A DNA stretch of 64,000 nucleotides from Naegleria gruberi. Its lineage: Eukaryota. Within the stretch, counting starts at the first letter, position 1, and each line of letters starts with the position of its first letter. The notes below the pieces were generated by a model, which saw only the letters and a list, made by a program, of their open reading frames with translations, did not search any database and had not been told where the DNA came from. Below, piece by piece: positions 7,099 to 36,444 of this stretch. The translations under genes and the position numbers were made by a program. The stretch lies in assembly GCA_000004985.1 (NCBI GenBank), contig GG738918.1; one strand, 5' to 3'.

Positions 7099-7216
7099 GG
7101 CTACGGCCATATCACGATGAATGCACCTCATCCCGTCCGATTTGAGAAGTTAAGTATCGTCGAGCCACATCAGTACTGAGGTTGGAGACAACTTGGGAAC
7201 CTGTGGTGCTGTAGTC
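7099..7216 (+). rRNA. 5S_rRNA: 5S ribosomal RNA gene (118 nt)
   Basis: 'GGCTACGGCCATATCACGATGAATGCACCTCATCCCGTCCGATTTGAGAAGTTAAGTATCGTCGAGCCACATCAGTACTGAGGTTGGAGACAACTTGGGAACCTGTGGTGCTGTAGTC' matches the eukaryotic 5S consensus blocks (CTACGGCCATA, GAAGnTAAG, AGTACT, TGGGAA, GTGCTGTAG). The 5' GGCTACGGC pairs with the 3' GCTGTAGTC (helix I, two G-U pairs). It is followed by a T5 Pol III terminator. Confidence 0.95.
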
Positions 7217-7221
7217 TTTTT
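7217..7221 (+). terminator. Pol III terminator T-run of the 5S gene
   Basis: TTTTT lies directly after the 3' helix-I strand of the 5S rRNA. Confidence 0.8.
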
Positions 7222-29831: not shown

Positions 29832-31031
29832 ATGATGAACAAGAGAAACGCTGGCGGAATTGAAAAGCAAGTGGTGTGGAGGAAGAGATTCAAGATCGAG
29901 AAGGAGCAGATTAATAATATTTGCAATTATCTGACCGATGGAAAATTCACTGATATTTCAAATTCTTCAAAACGTAGAACGCAGAAAAAGAAGAAGAGAA
30001 TTGATGAAGAGGAAATAGTTGAAACTAAAAATCCATCATCACCAGGTGGATTAGATGTCTATGAAAACACAAAATACTATGAATCGATAAGTAACTTTGC
30101 TTCACAATGGATAATTTCGCAAGAGGAATTAAATCACTTGGCTGAACAAGTCCAAGCTGAAGACAAGGAGCAACGACTAAAAGATCGCCTTTCTGAGGAG
30201 TATGAAATACAACAACGTCTAAAAGAAAAGGAAGTTAATCATCTTTCCTCTTTACTTCAGTCCTCTAGGAAAACATTATCATCTTTGGCGGAATTGTTAG
30301 AGCAAACAAAACCTACAATGATCAAACCAGAAGTTGATCCATTGCCTCTTCAACCAACAACAGCAACAGCTGTTTCTACACCACCTCCTCGTCAAACAAG
30401 TTCAACTGCTACCAATGCTAATGCTAATAATATTACAACAACAGCGATGGAACAAAGGGAGTTACCTAATAATTCAACAACAACAAATAGTAATATTCCT
30501 TCACCATTCGCTGCTAAACCTCCTCCAATGGCTAATAATCAATCAGCTATGAATACTAATCCTCCTATTATTGGCACTAGTAACATGACAACAAATCATC
30601 AACCACCACTTATTTCACCAGATTCTGCTTCAAATTCTACAACGAATAGTGTTCAACCAACTCAACCACCACCTTCACATCAACAAGGAAGTACAACCCC
30701 ATCCTCCTCTCTAAGTAATCAATCTAGTCTTCAAATCAAAGAAATACCCGACCATTCTCCACCACCTCCATACTATCCACCTTCATCTAGTTTACCATCT
30801 CACAGTCCTCACGTTAATGCATCAAATAGTATGATGATGAATAATTCACAACAAAGGCATTCATATCACAATCATTCTAGGTACCAACAACCTCCTCCAC
30901 CTCCACATCATCCACCTAATATGTGTGCACCTCCAATAGTACCTCCTTATATGCCACCACATCACTATCACAATCCATATCCTCAATATCCATACATTAA
31001 TCATAATGATAGACAAAGAAGAAAGAGGTGA
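29832..31031 (+). CDS. Hypothetical low-complexity protein with an N-terminal coiled coil and a P/Q/S/T/N-rich C-terminal half
   Basis: 399-codon ORF. 'EDKEQRLKDRLSEEYEIQQRLKEKEVNHLSSLLQ' is followed by a proline-rich tail ('PPPPYYPPSS', 'QQPPPPPHHPP'). Confidence 0.55.
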   Translation: MMNKRNAGGIEKQVVWRKRFKIEKEQINNICNYLTDGKFTDISNSSKRRTQKKKKRIDEEEIVETKNPSSPGGLDVYENTKYYESISNFASQWIISQEELNHLAEQVQAEDKEQRLKDRLSEEYEIQQRLKEKEVNHLSSLLQSSRKTLSSLAELLEQTKPTMIKPEVDPLPLQPTTATAVSTPPPRQTSSTATNANANNITTTAMEQRELPNNSTTTNSNIPSPFAAKPPPMANNQSAMNTNPPIIGTSNMTTNHQPPLISPDSASNSTTNSVQPTQPPPSHQQGSTTPSSSLSNQSSLQIKEIPDHSPPPPYYPPSSSLPSHSPHVNASNSMMMNNSQQRHSYHNHSRYQQPPPPPHHPPNMCAPPIVPPYMPPHHYHNPYPQYPYINHNDRQRRKR

Positions 31032-31049: not shown

Positions 31050-33503
31050 TTATTTAAAGAGTTTTAATACCGTTTTGAATGTTCTTGTTTGATTCTCATT
31101 AAATATTTTGAGGTTTTGTTTCTTTTTCAGCATGTCATTAATAACGTTTGAATCTTTGTAAACTTTGTGAGGTTTTACAACTTCAGTTTGAACTTTGATA
31201 TTTTTCAGTAGATGGTTAGGACGGTTAGGATTGAGGAAACTATAATTTGGAAGAATGTCCTTGGCAGGTAGTGAATTTAATTGATTTTGAGGGAATTTGG
31301 TAAGAGTCATTTTGGTGGTTTCTTGATGTTGGAGGAAGAAGGAATAATCATCCTTATTTGGAACTGCTTCCAATTTTTCTGAAATAGCAGAACGAATCCT
31401 TTTCAATGTATCTTCTTTTAACCAGTTTGAAAGAACATGAATAAAATCTTCACGATGATCAAATAAGTGTTGAACTGGAGAATTTTCAAATACTTGTCTA
31501 ACCTCAGGTATTGGAACAATATACTTGTGTCTATGTGAAATAGATGATGAAATCTAATATTGACAATCTACTTACTTTGCAGAAACACATGAAGATACAC
31601 AAAATTCTAGTGGATTCAAAATGAAATTATCAGAAGCTGGCACATTAATTGTCAAGAATGAATCTGGTTTACCTTCCACTTCCTTCTCACAATATAAAAC
31701 TAATTCATCAATTGATGGAATTGATTTAGGTTTGTAATATTGTGAATATCCCAAATTCTTTCCCTGAATATAACTCATAAACCAGGCACACATCACCAAA
31801 TAATCCTTCACAATTGGTTGATAGGATACTTCTGCAATCTTTTGTTGGAGTTTCCTTATTGAATTTGCATACTTTTCAATTTGTTCCTGATAGAAAAATG
31901 ATAAAAACTCATTAAATTGTTCTCTAGTCTCAAAAAGTCCAGTTTTAACTTTGGCTTCTCTGTGAAGTTCTCCATAATCAAAATTTAAGAAAATATTCTT
32001 GAATGCATTATTGAAAGCATCCTTCTTTGATTTACCTCTTGCTGTTGTAATGTAGGATTCTCCAATTTTGACCACGACTTGGAAATGTGGTTTTGGTTCT
32101 GCATCAATAATTTCATATTCCTCACATAGAAATTCTCTCTTTCCAAGATTTAATAAGGTAATAAGAAATACCATTGCTTCCTTTGTTGGAATATTATCAA
32201 TGTTAATCTTTGGAAATCCATTTTCCATTTCAGCTTTCTTCTTTGAATTGGATGTTTCAGTATCTTCATTTTCACCTTGCTTGAAATCCTTAATATAATC
32301 AGAATATAATGAAGATAGGAACTTGACATTGATTTTCATTTCACTTGGCTGTTTCAAATCATAATGTATTAAATACTCTCTATTTTCTGAATACTTTTGG
32401 TGAGCAATATATCTATCCATAAATAATTTAATATCAAATCTTCTCGGTTTAGAAATATAATCATTTCCACATAGAATAAATAAAAAGGTCATATCTGTAA
32501 TAATTCTCGATAAATCTTCATCTGATTTAGTTCTACATCGACGAGCAATTTGTTCCTTTAGTTTGGTAACATCATATAATTGATAAAAACCAGGCATATC
32601 TTTCACAAGAGTAATATGTCTATTGCGTGGTAAATTGAGAGCATATAAAACAAAATCTGAATCTCCAGAAACAATCAAATCTCTCTTCTCCTCCTTTTTG
32701 TGATTGTTTTTCTCTGATGAATAAATATGTTCAAGGATTTTAAACTCTCCCTCACCTTCTCTCCCAGCAGGTGAATGATAGAATGCAAGATTATTATTAA
32801 AAGTAGGATTTGTTAGCACCAATGCACCCAATTGCCAAATAACTAGTGAAACTTCTTGCATTAAATTTGTTCCTGGAACAAACCAAACAGAACTAATTGC
32901 CTTCTTTTCATTTCTTTCATTAATTACATTTTTCTGAATGAGTTTCAGGTAAATCTTTTGCACTTCAGTGAGAACAATCTCTTCATCCATATCTGATAAA
33001 TTAATAAATGAAACAAACGTATTTCCAGTATTTGTCATTGCACTATTCAAATATCTTCTAACTTTTTGTGTAATTAATTTACTTCTAGGTGCAGGACCAT
33101 CCACAGAAAAGAATAAACTTTCTCTAGCATCAAAATGATTCAAATATCTCATTACTCCCTCCAAAACAACAGAATGAAAAACCATTCTAGTATCTTGTGG
33201 AATTTCTTCATCTTCTCCTTCTATCTTTGTACCATTATCCTTTTCTGTTGTTGAATCTTGTTCCAAAATTGATTCCTTTCCTTGATTCATTACATTTTGA
33301 TGGTATTTCATCCTATTCATTATCTTTCTAGAACCATGTGTTGATTTATACAGCAGAGTATTAAAATCAAAATAAATATTATCATAAACATCCTCTGGTT
33401 TAATTGAATTATTCCTCCTCGTATTATTTAATTCATCTTTTGTGATGATGAAAGATTCTCCGAAGAGAATTGATAAAGTTTTGTAGAATGAATTAATTCC
33501 CAT
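31050..33503 (-). CDS. XRN-family 5'-3' exoribonuclease homologue with a C-terminal double-stranded-RNA-binding motif
   Basis: Exons 31576..33503 and 31050..31530 join in frame through a 45-nt intron (31531..31575, 'gtaagtagattg...tttcacatag'). XRN N-terminal motifs: 'MGINSFYKTL', 'NIYFDFNTLLYKSTH', 'LFFSVDGPAPRSKLITQKVRR', 'REGEGEFKILEHI', 'LIVSGDSDFVLYAL', 'FILCGNDYISK'. dsRBM: 'PKPHFQVVVKIGESYITTARGKSKKDAFNNAFKNIFL'. Confidence 0.75.
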
Positions 33504-33715: not shown

Positions 33716-35071
33716 TTAATCGTTGAATTGAACAATAATATTAACACCACGATCGGCAATAACTTCAGTATCAGTAGCATAAAGTTCAGTTCCTGTATGG
33801 AATAATTCCTTGACCTTCTTCTTCAAGTTTGGTTCAGTCATTTGTCTGAGAGTTGCAGGTTTAGTCAAATACAAAGTTTGGTCACTAGTCAAATTACGTA
33901 ATGAAGCATTGTTGAATTGAATTGACTTGTCGGTTCTCAAAATATCTCTAAATTCATCCAAAGTAATATCTGATGAACAAGTAATTGTCTTTGAAACACC
34001 AGCAGGACCACATTGCAAACAATCTGGCTTTCTTTCATTCTTATAAGTGAATGTATAAATACCTTCACTTCCGTTAAACATCATGTAATCATCCAAGAAT
34101 GGAGTACAGAAAGTAGCCAATTTGAATGCTTCATTTGTACATGATGAAGCAATAATAGCATTGGTGGAGGCAATAGCAGGAATGATACCCTTGATGACAC
34201 CTTGTGTTAAACGGAATGTAACACCAGCAATACCAAAGTTCTTGGCACGTTCCAAAGACTTTTCATAGATCCATTGAACGTGTCTTGGATTATCACCATC
34301 AACTTGTTCATCATCAGGAATACCTTCCTTTCCTTTACAATTACGCCATTCTTCAATATAACAATATTGAATACAATGTTCAGGAAGACGTGGAGTTGTC
34401 TTTAAAGTACACATTGGATAATTTGTTTCATCAGTAGGGAATAAATCCAAAGTACATTCATAACAAGATGTAACACCTGGCAAGATAACTCTAGATTGTC
34501 CTTTAAAGCCTTCAGTACCACCATCAACCAAGGAAATCATGGAACTCATATCAACTTCAGTCTTTTCATCATCAACATATTGAATCAAAGAGAGGAGAGT
34601 ACTATTGATCCAACGACGAGCTGGAATAGAATCCAAACCAGCAATAATAATTCCAAATGATCTATAGAAATCAACAGACTTTTCTTGGATTGCACAAATG
34701 TGTGCTGTAACTTTAACACCTGGCACTCTTTCATTGACAAATCGAGCAGCAACTTCAGCCTTCATCTTACCAACATCACCATCACGGAACAAAAATTGTC
34801 TATTCAAATTACTTGTACTGATGGTATCCATATCAATGATATCAATATTACGGAAGCCACTCATTGCCAAATTCTTCACCAAATCGCAACCAAGACCACC
34901 AGCTCCAATAATTAAAACTTTGCAAGAATCTTGTAAAAATTGTTTAGTTTCATCACCAGCTTGGAAATCTGCTGGAGCAAATGGACCTGATCTCTTCAAA
35001 ATATAATCAAGATCTTTCCATCTTTCTGCTTCAATTTCAGGAGGGAATGATGTATCTACAACGCTGGCCAT
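33716..35071 (-). CDS. UBA3: NEDD8-activating enzyme E1 catalytic subunit (UBA3/UBE1C)
   Basis: 'CKVLIIGAGGLGCDLVKNLAMSGFRNIDIIDMDTISTSNLNRQFLFR' (ThiF/E1 adenylation fold). Catalytic-Cys region 'YPMCTLKTTPRLPEHCIQY' matches the UBA3 sequence 'PMCTIASMPRLPEHCIEY'. The start at 35071 ('aaaaaaaaATGgcc') is preferred over the upstream in-frame ATG at 35173. Confidence 0.9.
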   Translation of the reverse strand: MASVVDTSFPPEIEAERWKDLDYILKRSGPFAPADFQAGDETKQFLQDSCKVLIIGAGGLGCDLVKNLAMSGFRNIDIIDMDTISTSNLNRQFLFRDGDVGKMKAEVAARFVNERVPGVKVTAHICAIQEKSVDFYRSFGIIIAGLDSIPARRWINSTLLSLIQYVDDEKTEVDMSSMISLVDGGTEGFKGQSRVILPGVTSCYECTLDLFPTDETNYPMCTLKTTPRLPEHCIQYCYIEEWRNCKGKEGIPDDEQVDGDNPRHVQWIYEKSLERAKNFGIAGVTFRLTQGVIKGIIPAIASTNAIIASSCTNEAFKLATFCTPFLDDYMMFNGSEGIYTFTYKNERKPDCLQCGPAGVSKTITCSSDITLDEFRDILRTDKSIQFNNASLRNLTSDQTLYLTKPATLRQMTEPNLKKKVKELFHTGTELYATDTEVIADRGVNIIVQFND

Positions 35072-36444
35072 TTTTTTTCTATGTATTGAATTGATCAAAC
35101 TTGCAGAGAACTTGAGTTTATTTTTAAATCCAAAGTTGCTGCTTTGAAAGGCTTGGGATGAACTCAACAACATTGAGAAATATTGTTGAACACAAGTGAA
35201 ACAATTTACAATGAATGATAGAGAGAGTTGGGGTTTTGAATTTGAATTTGTAATGGTGTGAATTTTTAAAAGAGATGATCAACTTTTGAAGTTATTGCCA
35301 ACAACATATTGTAGTTTTCCAGAAACCATGACATAAATTTTTTCACCTCAACACCGATCATTTTTCCATCTCATCCATGTTGATCGATTAAAATCCATCT
35401 ATTCAATCTGTTTTTTGATCAATCTATCAAACAATCGATCATGATTAATCAACAATTTCAATCATATTGAATAAAGACTTGATGTTATTTGAAAAGGCTC
35501 AATTTTCAACTAATTATCAAAAGATGTTGTTTGATTTCTTGTGATGTTTCAAAATAAAGAACTTTAAAACACAAAAAGTTGTTTTTCCAAGTTGCTTAAA
35601 ATCATGTTAGAAGCCAATCTCCTCCGATGTGGCATTTGAATATAAATTTCTTATAATCCTTTCTGAGCTCAATGACAGAGGGTTGCTCCCTTTTTCCAAG
35701 AATATGTCAAGTGCTCACTCTTGATTTTAATTTGGGATATGGATATTGCAATATTACATAAGAGTGTTGGTTCTTGGTTAATGATTGCTTACACAAGTTT
35801 GGACGTTGTTGCTCCTGAACATGTGGTTTTGTTCAAAGAACACCTTATCAAATTTGCTTTCATTCTCTCCCTTTGTCATTAATTAAGGCAGTGAATACTG
35901 GAAACCTTTTTTCAAGTGTTGTATTTATCATGTCAAGTTCTTGAGAAACTCGATTGATGTAGTAGAAGATCCACTAGTAATTCAGTAAGATACAAATCTA
36001 TCTAAGTTGTAACCCAGCATTTCTTCGAAAATGTCGAATTCATTGTAAAGAAATTAAAACATTCAAACTTAATGAATCGTTCACGATACCACCCCCACTT
36101 GATATGGAATTAAGTAATACCAATAAGGTGATTTTCAAGACACTCTATACTGACATCCAACCAAGGGTTGATTTAAAATGAAAAAAGGAGCAATTTGGAG
36201 AAGCCATTTCCAAGCTTAGTGATATAATTTAATTAAGGGAGAATGAAATCTGTGACTCTAAAAATAATTGAAAAACCAAAAAACAACTCTCAAAAAGGCA
36301 AGAAAAAAATCAAACCTGAACTGGAAGAACAAAAGAAATCATCAAAATCAAAGTCTCAAGCTCAGTTCAATGAGGATTTCGAGATATCTGATGAAAACAT
36401 TGATAGATCGATCGATTGATCGATCAATTAATTGATAAAATTCT

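Follow-up and report, generated by a model that had tools for sequence, protein, structure and literature searches.

A diverged XRN-family protein of Naegleria gruberi with a predicted double-stranded RNA-binding domain inserted in its nuclease core

Enzymes of the XRN family are the main 5'→3' RNA degraders of eukaryotes; they thread single-stranded 5' ends and stall at stable structures. Double-stranded RNA-binding domains (dsRBDs) are familiar from RNase III, Drosha and Dicer, with Staufen and TARBP2 as dsRBD partners; these nucleases are endonucleases, and in the RNase III type the dsRBD is appended at the C-terminus. Here we describe a gene on the minus strand of a 64,000-nucleotide stretch of Naegleria gruberi contig GG738918.1 (assembly GCA_000004985.1; hereafter the window), at positions 31050-33503, which encodes a diverged XRN-family protein, with the PIN/FEN-like fold of a 5'→3' exonuclease, whose predicted dsRBD lies within the catalytic region, between the two conserved regions (CR1 and CR2) of the nuclease core. 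The literature searches turned up no XRN that carries a dsRBD of its own.

The two-metal active site of XRN1 is built from the acidic residues D35, D86, E176, E178, D206, D208 and D292, and the basic pocket that receives the 5'-monophosphate is formed by four conserved residues in the APRAKMNQQRSRR motif of the family (PMC5499597). Canonical XRN genes are located elsewhere in the N. gruberi genome (XP_002671758 and XP_002679108; PMC5862402 supplement), and the insert-bearing protein is therefore an extra paralogue. Kinetoplastids, which belong to Discoba like Naegleria, also carry extra diverged paralogues beside their XRN1-like and XRN2-like genes, among them XRNB (Tb927.5.2450), XRNE and XRNF. 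XRNB and XRNC are located in the cytoplasm and have no clear role, nucleolar XRNE takes part in the processing of 5.8S and 18S rRNA, and no domain besides XRN_N could be identified in XRNE and XRNF by the authors of that work.

The predicted protein has 802 amino acids (aa) and is encoded by a 2409-nt coding sequence (minus strand, 33503..31576 joined to 31530..31050), as reconstructed by splicing. Its XRN_N nuclease domain, or CR1 (~aa 1-355, 32439..33503, minus strand), was delimited by alignments and by the Pfam profile (PF03159), which scored 111.2 bits (E=7e-32), far beyond chance at a cut-off of 22.9. The first-pass annotation of this DNA had proposed XRN signature blocks with their acidic residues apparently intact, and every quoted motif was located: IYFDFN (aa 43-48), SVDGPAPR (aa 133-140), EGEGEFK (aa 249-255), SGDSDF (aa 279-284) and CGNDYI (aa 345-350). 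The seven putative catalytic acids, all encoded on the minus strand, are D46 (33368-33366), D135 (33101-33099), E251 (32753-32751), E253 (32747-32745), D281 (32663-32661), D283 (32657-32655) and D348 (32462-32460), and they fall in motifs that align with those of Schizosaccharomyces pombe Rat1 and Caenorhabditis elegans XRN2. Alignment to Rat1 places the 5'-phosphate pocket at K142, Q146, R149 and R150, within APRSKLITQKVRR. The seven acids and the four pocket residues are invariant in an alignment of four heterolobosean sequences from Naegleria and Willaertia.

Comparison with solved structures pointed in the same direction. The best sequence matches in the Protein Data Bank (PDB) were chains of Rat1/XRN2 and XRN1, with XRN2/Rat1 on top, and they were weak (E=2e-6). 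The aligned pairs were SVDGPAPRSKLITQKVRR with AIDGVAPRAKMNQQRSRR, GEGEFKI with GEGEHKI, SGDSDF with GLDADL, CGNDYI with VGNDFL and IYFDFN with LYLDMN. A full-length AlphaFold2 model, calculated from a 12-sequence alignment (mean predicted local distance difference test score, pLDDT, 76; predicted template modelling score, pTM, 0.73), matched S. pombe Rat1, human XRN1, yeast Rat1, Chaetomium thermophilum Xrn2 and C. elegans XRN2 with E ~1e-16 to 1e-15 over ~750-860 alignment columns, dsRBDs appearing as secondary matches. These data support the assignment to the XRN family with apparently intact catalytic and 5'-phosphate-binding residues. Since the acids and the phosphate pocket are conserved, the protein would be, by homology, a 5'-phosphate-dependent 5'→3' exoribonuclease.

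XRN2/Rat1 (S. pombe Rat1, 3fqd; C. elegans XRN2, 5fir) shares with the N. gruberi protein the two-part core of CR1 and CR2, the seven acids and the phosphate pocket, provides its best matches in sequence and in fold, and likewise lacks the C-terminal domains of XRN1 type. However, identity over the fold alignment is just ~12-16%, and the XRN_N score of 111 bits compares with ~325 bits in two canonical XRN2-type proteins. The motifs also differ (SKLITQKVRR for AKMNQQRSRR and SGDSDF for GLDADL), as do the C-terminal tail and the linker between CR1 and CR2, which in the N. gruberi protein holds the dsRBD. The core fold matches XRN1/Pacman/Kem1 as well (2y35, 3pie and 9e70; E ~1e-16 to human XRN1), but the N. 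gruberi protein is about half the size of XRN1, carries the insert and has none of the XRN1 C-terminal domains that Pfam detects. Even at a threshold of E=10, Pfam returned just XRN_N and a weak dsrm match, and no XRN1-type C-terminal domain (D1-D4, SH3-like). The earlier description of a protein of about 800 aa, short for XRN1, was accurate.

Between the first two catalytic motifs, the Naegleria proteins have an acidic insertion (aa 60-105, ~33190-33325, minus strand) that was modelled with low confidence (pLDDT <50 at aa 77-98) and is largely missing from Willaertia and the more distant relatives.

CR2 (~aa 527-720, 31299..31925, minus strand) was delimited by the fold match of the full-length model and by alignment, and is interrupted by an intron. 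It contains DYLVMCAWFMSYIQGKNLGYSQYYKP and NSPVQHLFD, which we take to be the equivalents of the canonical XRN blocks W(V/L)L.YYY.G..SW.WYYP.HY.P and SPI.DFYP, respectively; NSPVQHLFD, encoded by exon 2, aligns together with its neighbouring segments with the end of CR2 in the relatives. Exon 1 (31576..33503, minus strand) starts at the ATG at 33503-33501, supported by an N-terminus, MGINSFYK, that aligns with the relatives and resembles those of other XRNs; it provides codons 1-642 and two bases of codon 643, in agreement with the list of open reading frames (ORFs), the splice reconstruction and the N-terminal alignment. The intron (31531..31575) is a 45-nt, phase-2 element of the form GTAAGT...CATAG, identified from the sequence and by comparison with other Naegleria: in the context ...GCA AA|GTAAGT a consensus donor overlaps the stop codon, and the acceptor ...CATAG| ends at 31531. 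Exon 2 (31050..31530, minus strand) provides the last base of codon 643, codons 644-802 and the TAA stop codon at 31052-31050, and its product comprises the end of CR2 and a basic C-terminal tail.

Without splicing, the minus-strand ORF runs from ATG to TAA at 33503..31572 and encodes 643 aa, the retained intron supplying the stop codon (TAA, 31574-31572). The deposited N. gruberi "predicted protein" (P0001) has 643 aa and is 100% identical to this ORF, so the public model is the unspliced one; it lacks 159 residues inside the catalytic core, part of CR2 among them, and needs correction. That the 643-aa form is the real product, or that the gene is undergoing decay, with the continuation of the frame downstream being due to chance, could be argued from this public model and from the length of the intron, which is divisible by three and makes frame continuity alone weak evidence of splicing. 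Nevertheless, we regard this explanation as extremely improbable, for the protein encoded by exon 2 is conserved in Naegleria lovaniensis, in a third Naegleria, in Willaertia and in distant relatives, the catalytic residues are invariant, and the 643-aa form would be deprived of part of CR2. The N. lovaniensis orthologue has a 92-nt GTAAGT...TAG intron at the identical codon and phase, followed by the conserved exon 2, and as 92 is not divisible by three, splicing is needed there to keep the frame; the annotation of this species (803 aa) is properly spliced. A contig from the third Naegleria has a 135-nt GTAAGT...TAG intron at the identical position, giving a 798-aa protein with the conserved exon 2, and a prokaryote-style gene call on this contig halts at the same ...CVSYK*. 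Moreover, the orthologues of N. lovaniensis (803 aa) and Willaertia magna (765 aa) align across all 802 residues, the part encoded by exon 2 included; this part is also conserved in the alignment of more distant relatives, and two proteins (P0020 and P0021) gave separate matches confined to it. The intron that the first-pass annotation had required is thus confirmed by cross-species comparison, which also indicates that exon 2 is no optional tail. The predicted catalytic core would be complete only once the 45 nt are removed, with CR1 coming from exon 1 and CR2 split over both exons.

The C-terminal tail itself (~aa 721-802, 31053..31298, minus strand), delimited by alignment and modelled with low confidence, retains motifs that are common to distant members of the family (P0004, P0008 and P0014), namely KPH.VY (KPHKVY in N. 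gruberi) and basic/hydrophobic ends such as FKTVLKLFK in N. gruberi and, as further examples, LKQFCRLLK and LKTLSKLFK.

The wider family was recovered with an exhaustive profile search by hidden Markov model (HMM) of 1.84 billion representative sequences, which yielded 3380 XRN-like proteins. Word-indexed homologue searches retrieved only Naegleria, Willaertia and three weak XRNs, and seeding them with a 12-member alignment added none; the wider group came only from the HMM search. Scores exceeded 1100 bits for Naegleria and Willaertia and then dropped steeply, to 214 bits for an Acrasis kona protein labelled "RAT1", followed by a EukProt protein (P0009), Balamuthia mandrillaris, Endostelium zonatum, Arcella intermedia, Planoprotostelium fungivorum and several environmental sequences. 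These relatives have 520-770 aa, and their alignment with the query runs over the full length, insert site and C-terminal region included. Database labels for the group are "predicted protein", "Xrn1 N-terminal domain-containing protein" and "RAT1".

The region that sets these proteins apart from canonical XRNs is a domain with dsRBD fold, at ~aa 437-510 of the N. gruberi protein (31974..32195, minus strand), defined by predicted fold, fold searches and profile. The alpha1-beta1-beta2-beta3-alpha2 order of a dsRBD was found in the predicted structure and in the fold searches. The beta1-beta2 loop carries KPH, and helix 2 opens with GKSKKDAFNNAF. On its N-terminal side the domain is flanked by a disordered linker (aa 410-433, pLDDT <50), and on the other side CR2 helices modelled with confidence follow directly, which places it as an insert within the linker that joins CR1 to CR2. 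The dsRNA-binding motif (dsRBM)-like string that had been read as lying downstream of the N-terminal nuclease part (aa 470-506) is indeed present, although as part of a domain inserted between CR1 and CR2 and not as a downstream appendage. At the equivalent site of relatives, flanked by the XRN_N and XRN_M matches, dsrm (PF00035) exceeds its Pfam threshold (36.6 bits in P0035, 28.7 in P0009 and 26.0 in P0027). A profile built from 21 inserts and compared with PDB sequences matched Staufen1 (5.5e-11) and TARBP2 (2.3e-10), and also ADAR1, DGCR8, RNase III and PKR; among the 60 matches listed, all were dsRBD-containing proteins except a weak DDX1 (E=0.17), and none was an XRN chain.

An HMM made from four heterolobosean inserts found one extra member only, and the relatives with a Pfam match had to be added to the seed; with the resulting local insert HMM, run on the query and 156 retrieved proteins, the insert was found in 23 distinct proteins. 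This HMM gave no match in the canonical XRN2-type proteins P0030, P0047 and P0080. The expectation that canonical XRN1 and XRN2 contain no such domain was borne out in the XRN2-type proteins tested and in the solved XRN1/XRN2 chains, and the search for the same domain fusion in other taxa succeeded in heterolobosean, amoebozoan and environmental proteins. A dsRBD between CR1 and CR2 thus appears to mark a group of XRNs present in Heterolobosea, Amoebozoa and environmental samples.

From these data, we consider it reasonably probable that the product of this gene is a third XRN-family enzyme in N. gruberi, highly diverged and most likely active, in which the dsRBD serves as a built-in module for substrate recruitment. 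The complete core of CR1 and CR2 would provide a Mg2+-dependent, 5'-monophosphate-dependent 5'→3' exoribonuclease activity, and the dsRBD would grip an RNA at a duplex or hairpin while the 5' end of that RNA enters the XRN pocket. Such an arrangement would give the enzyme a preference for structured RNAs with a 5'-phosphate; candidate substrates are what RNase III, Dicer or other endonucleases release, spacers of pre-rRNA, and viral or antisense duplexes. We infer the enzymatic activity, the RNA binding by the dsRBD and the class of substrate from homology and predicted fold.

Several results weigh against this proposal. Pfam XRN_M, which matches the relatives within the aligned region, gave no match in the N. 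gruberi protein. For the N. gruberi sequence alone, dsrm reached 18.6 bits against a cut-off of 23 (E=0.0028), in a partial match at aa 465-500, and the isolated insert had a single match among PDB sequences, vaccinia E3, with E=0.34. Furthermore, only 8 of 21 members have both basic residues of the pair in dsRBD region 3, 7 have one of the two and 6 have neither; the nearest orthologues are among those with just one (KT in N. lovaniensis, KH in the other Naegleria). Of the two profile matches anticipated by the first-pass annotation, XRN_N lies far above its cut-off while dsrm stays below threshold, and "canonical" was too strong a word for the motif of N. gruberi because the Pfam score falls short of the gathering value. 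The insert is solidly a dsRBD by fold, by its relatives and by the family profile, whereas the Pfam call for the N. gruberi sequence alone is weak.

The uneven retention of the basic pair makes a scaffold or protein-docking role a serious rival. Under it the enzyme would be an active XRN with a "type B" dsRBD that does not bind RNA and either braces CR1 against CR2 or docks a partner, like dsRBD5 of Staufen, the substrates being ordinary single-stranded 5'-phosphorylated RNAs and the specificity coming from partners. Consistent with such a role, the protein-binding Staufen dsRBD5 (5cff and 4dkk) is among the fold matches of the insert, the C-terminal side of the domain runs directly into the CR2 helices, and conservation within the insert peaks at columns that can be read as determinants of the fold, namely the G.G motif and the Ala positions of helix 2, one of which is conserved to 90% or more. 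On the other hand, the N. gruberi insert itself retains the KK pair (GKSKKDA) and the His of the beta1-beta2 loop (KPH), four relatives (P0035, P0028, P0043 and P0009) have the textbook G.G.(S/T)KK.A motif, and the family consensus at region 3, GiGlskkeAqtnAa, aligns with the motif of the RNA-binding dsRBD3/4 of Staufen1. On balance, we judge an insert that does not bind RNA to be rather unlikely, and continue to favour its role in recruitment of structured RNA.

Regarding the origin of the group, a neighbour-joining tree of 195 XRN-like proteins placed the insert-bearing ones in a single clade of 40 leaves, without viral sequences. This grouping was recovered in just 6 of 60 bootstrap replicates, and monophyly is not claimed; due to this weak support, the shared insertion site is preferred as the argument over the tree. 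Near this clade lies P0022, a diverged XRN-like protein from Chloroparvula japonica (964 aa), in which an RNA recognition motif (Pfam RRM_1, 28.9 bits) was found in the C-terminal part and no dsRBD was detected, suggesting that diverged XRNs gained RNA-binding modules more than once.

Giant viruses (nucleocytoplasmic large DNA viruses, NCLDV) were considered as a source of the gene, which would then derive from a past viral integration and not from a cellular lineage. Giant-virus contigs of IMG/VR encode compact XRN-like proteins, mostly of 450-730 aa, that Pfam-style searches place with XRN_N and that are 20-30% identical to the query; the group hosts are amoebae, typical hosts of such viruses, and an NCLDV exoribonuclease gene has reportedly been transferred to Selaginella (PMC4083422). 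However, the scan of IMG/VR yielded 57 XRN-like loci and none had the dsRBD insert, the viral proteins do not group with that of N. gruberi and were drawn into the insert-bearing grouping in only 6 of 60 bootstrap replicates, the spliceosomal intron is conserved over three Naegleria species, and the gene lies among ordinary cellular genes, such as one for a UBA3-like E1 enzyme. A viral origin was consequently rejected as the main explanation and appears very unlikely.

A relation to the kinetoplastid paralogues is a further lead. The wider insert-bearing group shares with XRNB the variants AKLxTQ(K/R)xRR and VVGNDSDL(I/V)L, and at these sites the N. gruberi protein has SKLITQKVRR and IVSGDSDFVL. 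Kinetoplastid profiles built from the trimmed alignment in the PMC5862402 supplement gave low and near-equal scores for XRNA, XRNB, XRNC and XRND against group members, with a slight edge for XRNB in several (XRNB 43.9 bits, XRNA 37.7, XRND 29). No firm orthology to any kinetoplastid XRN group can be assigned, and at the level of sequence the link to XRNB is a lead. We put forward, tentatively and as a possibility we would not call probable, that a third old XRN lineage exists apart from XRN1 and XRN2, defined by the dsRBD between CR1 and CR2, present at least in Discoba and Amoebozoa and maybe including kinetoplastid XRNB. The task of this lineage would be the decay of 5'-phosphorylated RNAs with duplex parts on which canonical XRNs perform poorly, for example dsRNA of viral or antisense origin, structured spacers of pre-rRNA and what Dicer or RNase III leave as by-products.

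Provided that the dsRBD is functional, exonucleolytic decay would be coupled to duplex recognition in these proteins by a different route, and they would be candidates for clearing the by-products of RNA interference and RNase III, or viral dsRNA, in amoebae that include relatives of the pathogens Naegleria fowleri and Balamuthia.

The surroundings of the gene were also inspected. A convergent plus-strand ORF at 29832..31031 (399 aa, rich in Pro, Gln, Asn and Ser, without Pfam match) ends 18 nt from the XRN stop codon, so the 3' untranslated regions of both genes either overlap or are extremely short; in the case of overlap, the convergent transcripts could pair as natural antisense duplexes. 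Upstream, an intron-less ORF of 485 aa at 33716-35173 (minus strand) matches Pfam ThiF (182 bits) and E2_bind (63 bits), the architecture of the catalytic subunit of a NEDD8-activating enzyme, and its predicted product is UBA3-like. The upstream genes at the other two Naegleria loci (L001, 384-2787; L002, 1-2824) are an SGL-domain gene and a gene of ~600 aa without Pfam match, and local gene order at the XRN orthologue may differ among Naegleria species. The G+C content of the window is 31.5%, and no tRNA genes were found in it by ARAGORN. The sole Rfam match at gathering level in the window is a complete 5S rRNA gene at 7099-7217 on the plus strand (RF00001, 102 bits, E=3e-21), located amid protein-coding ORFs.

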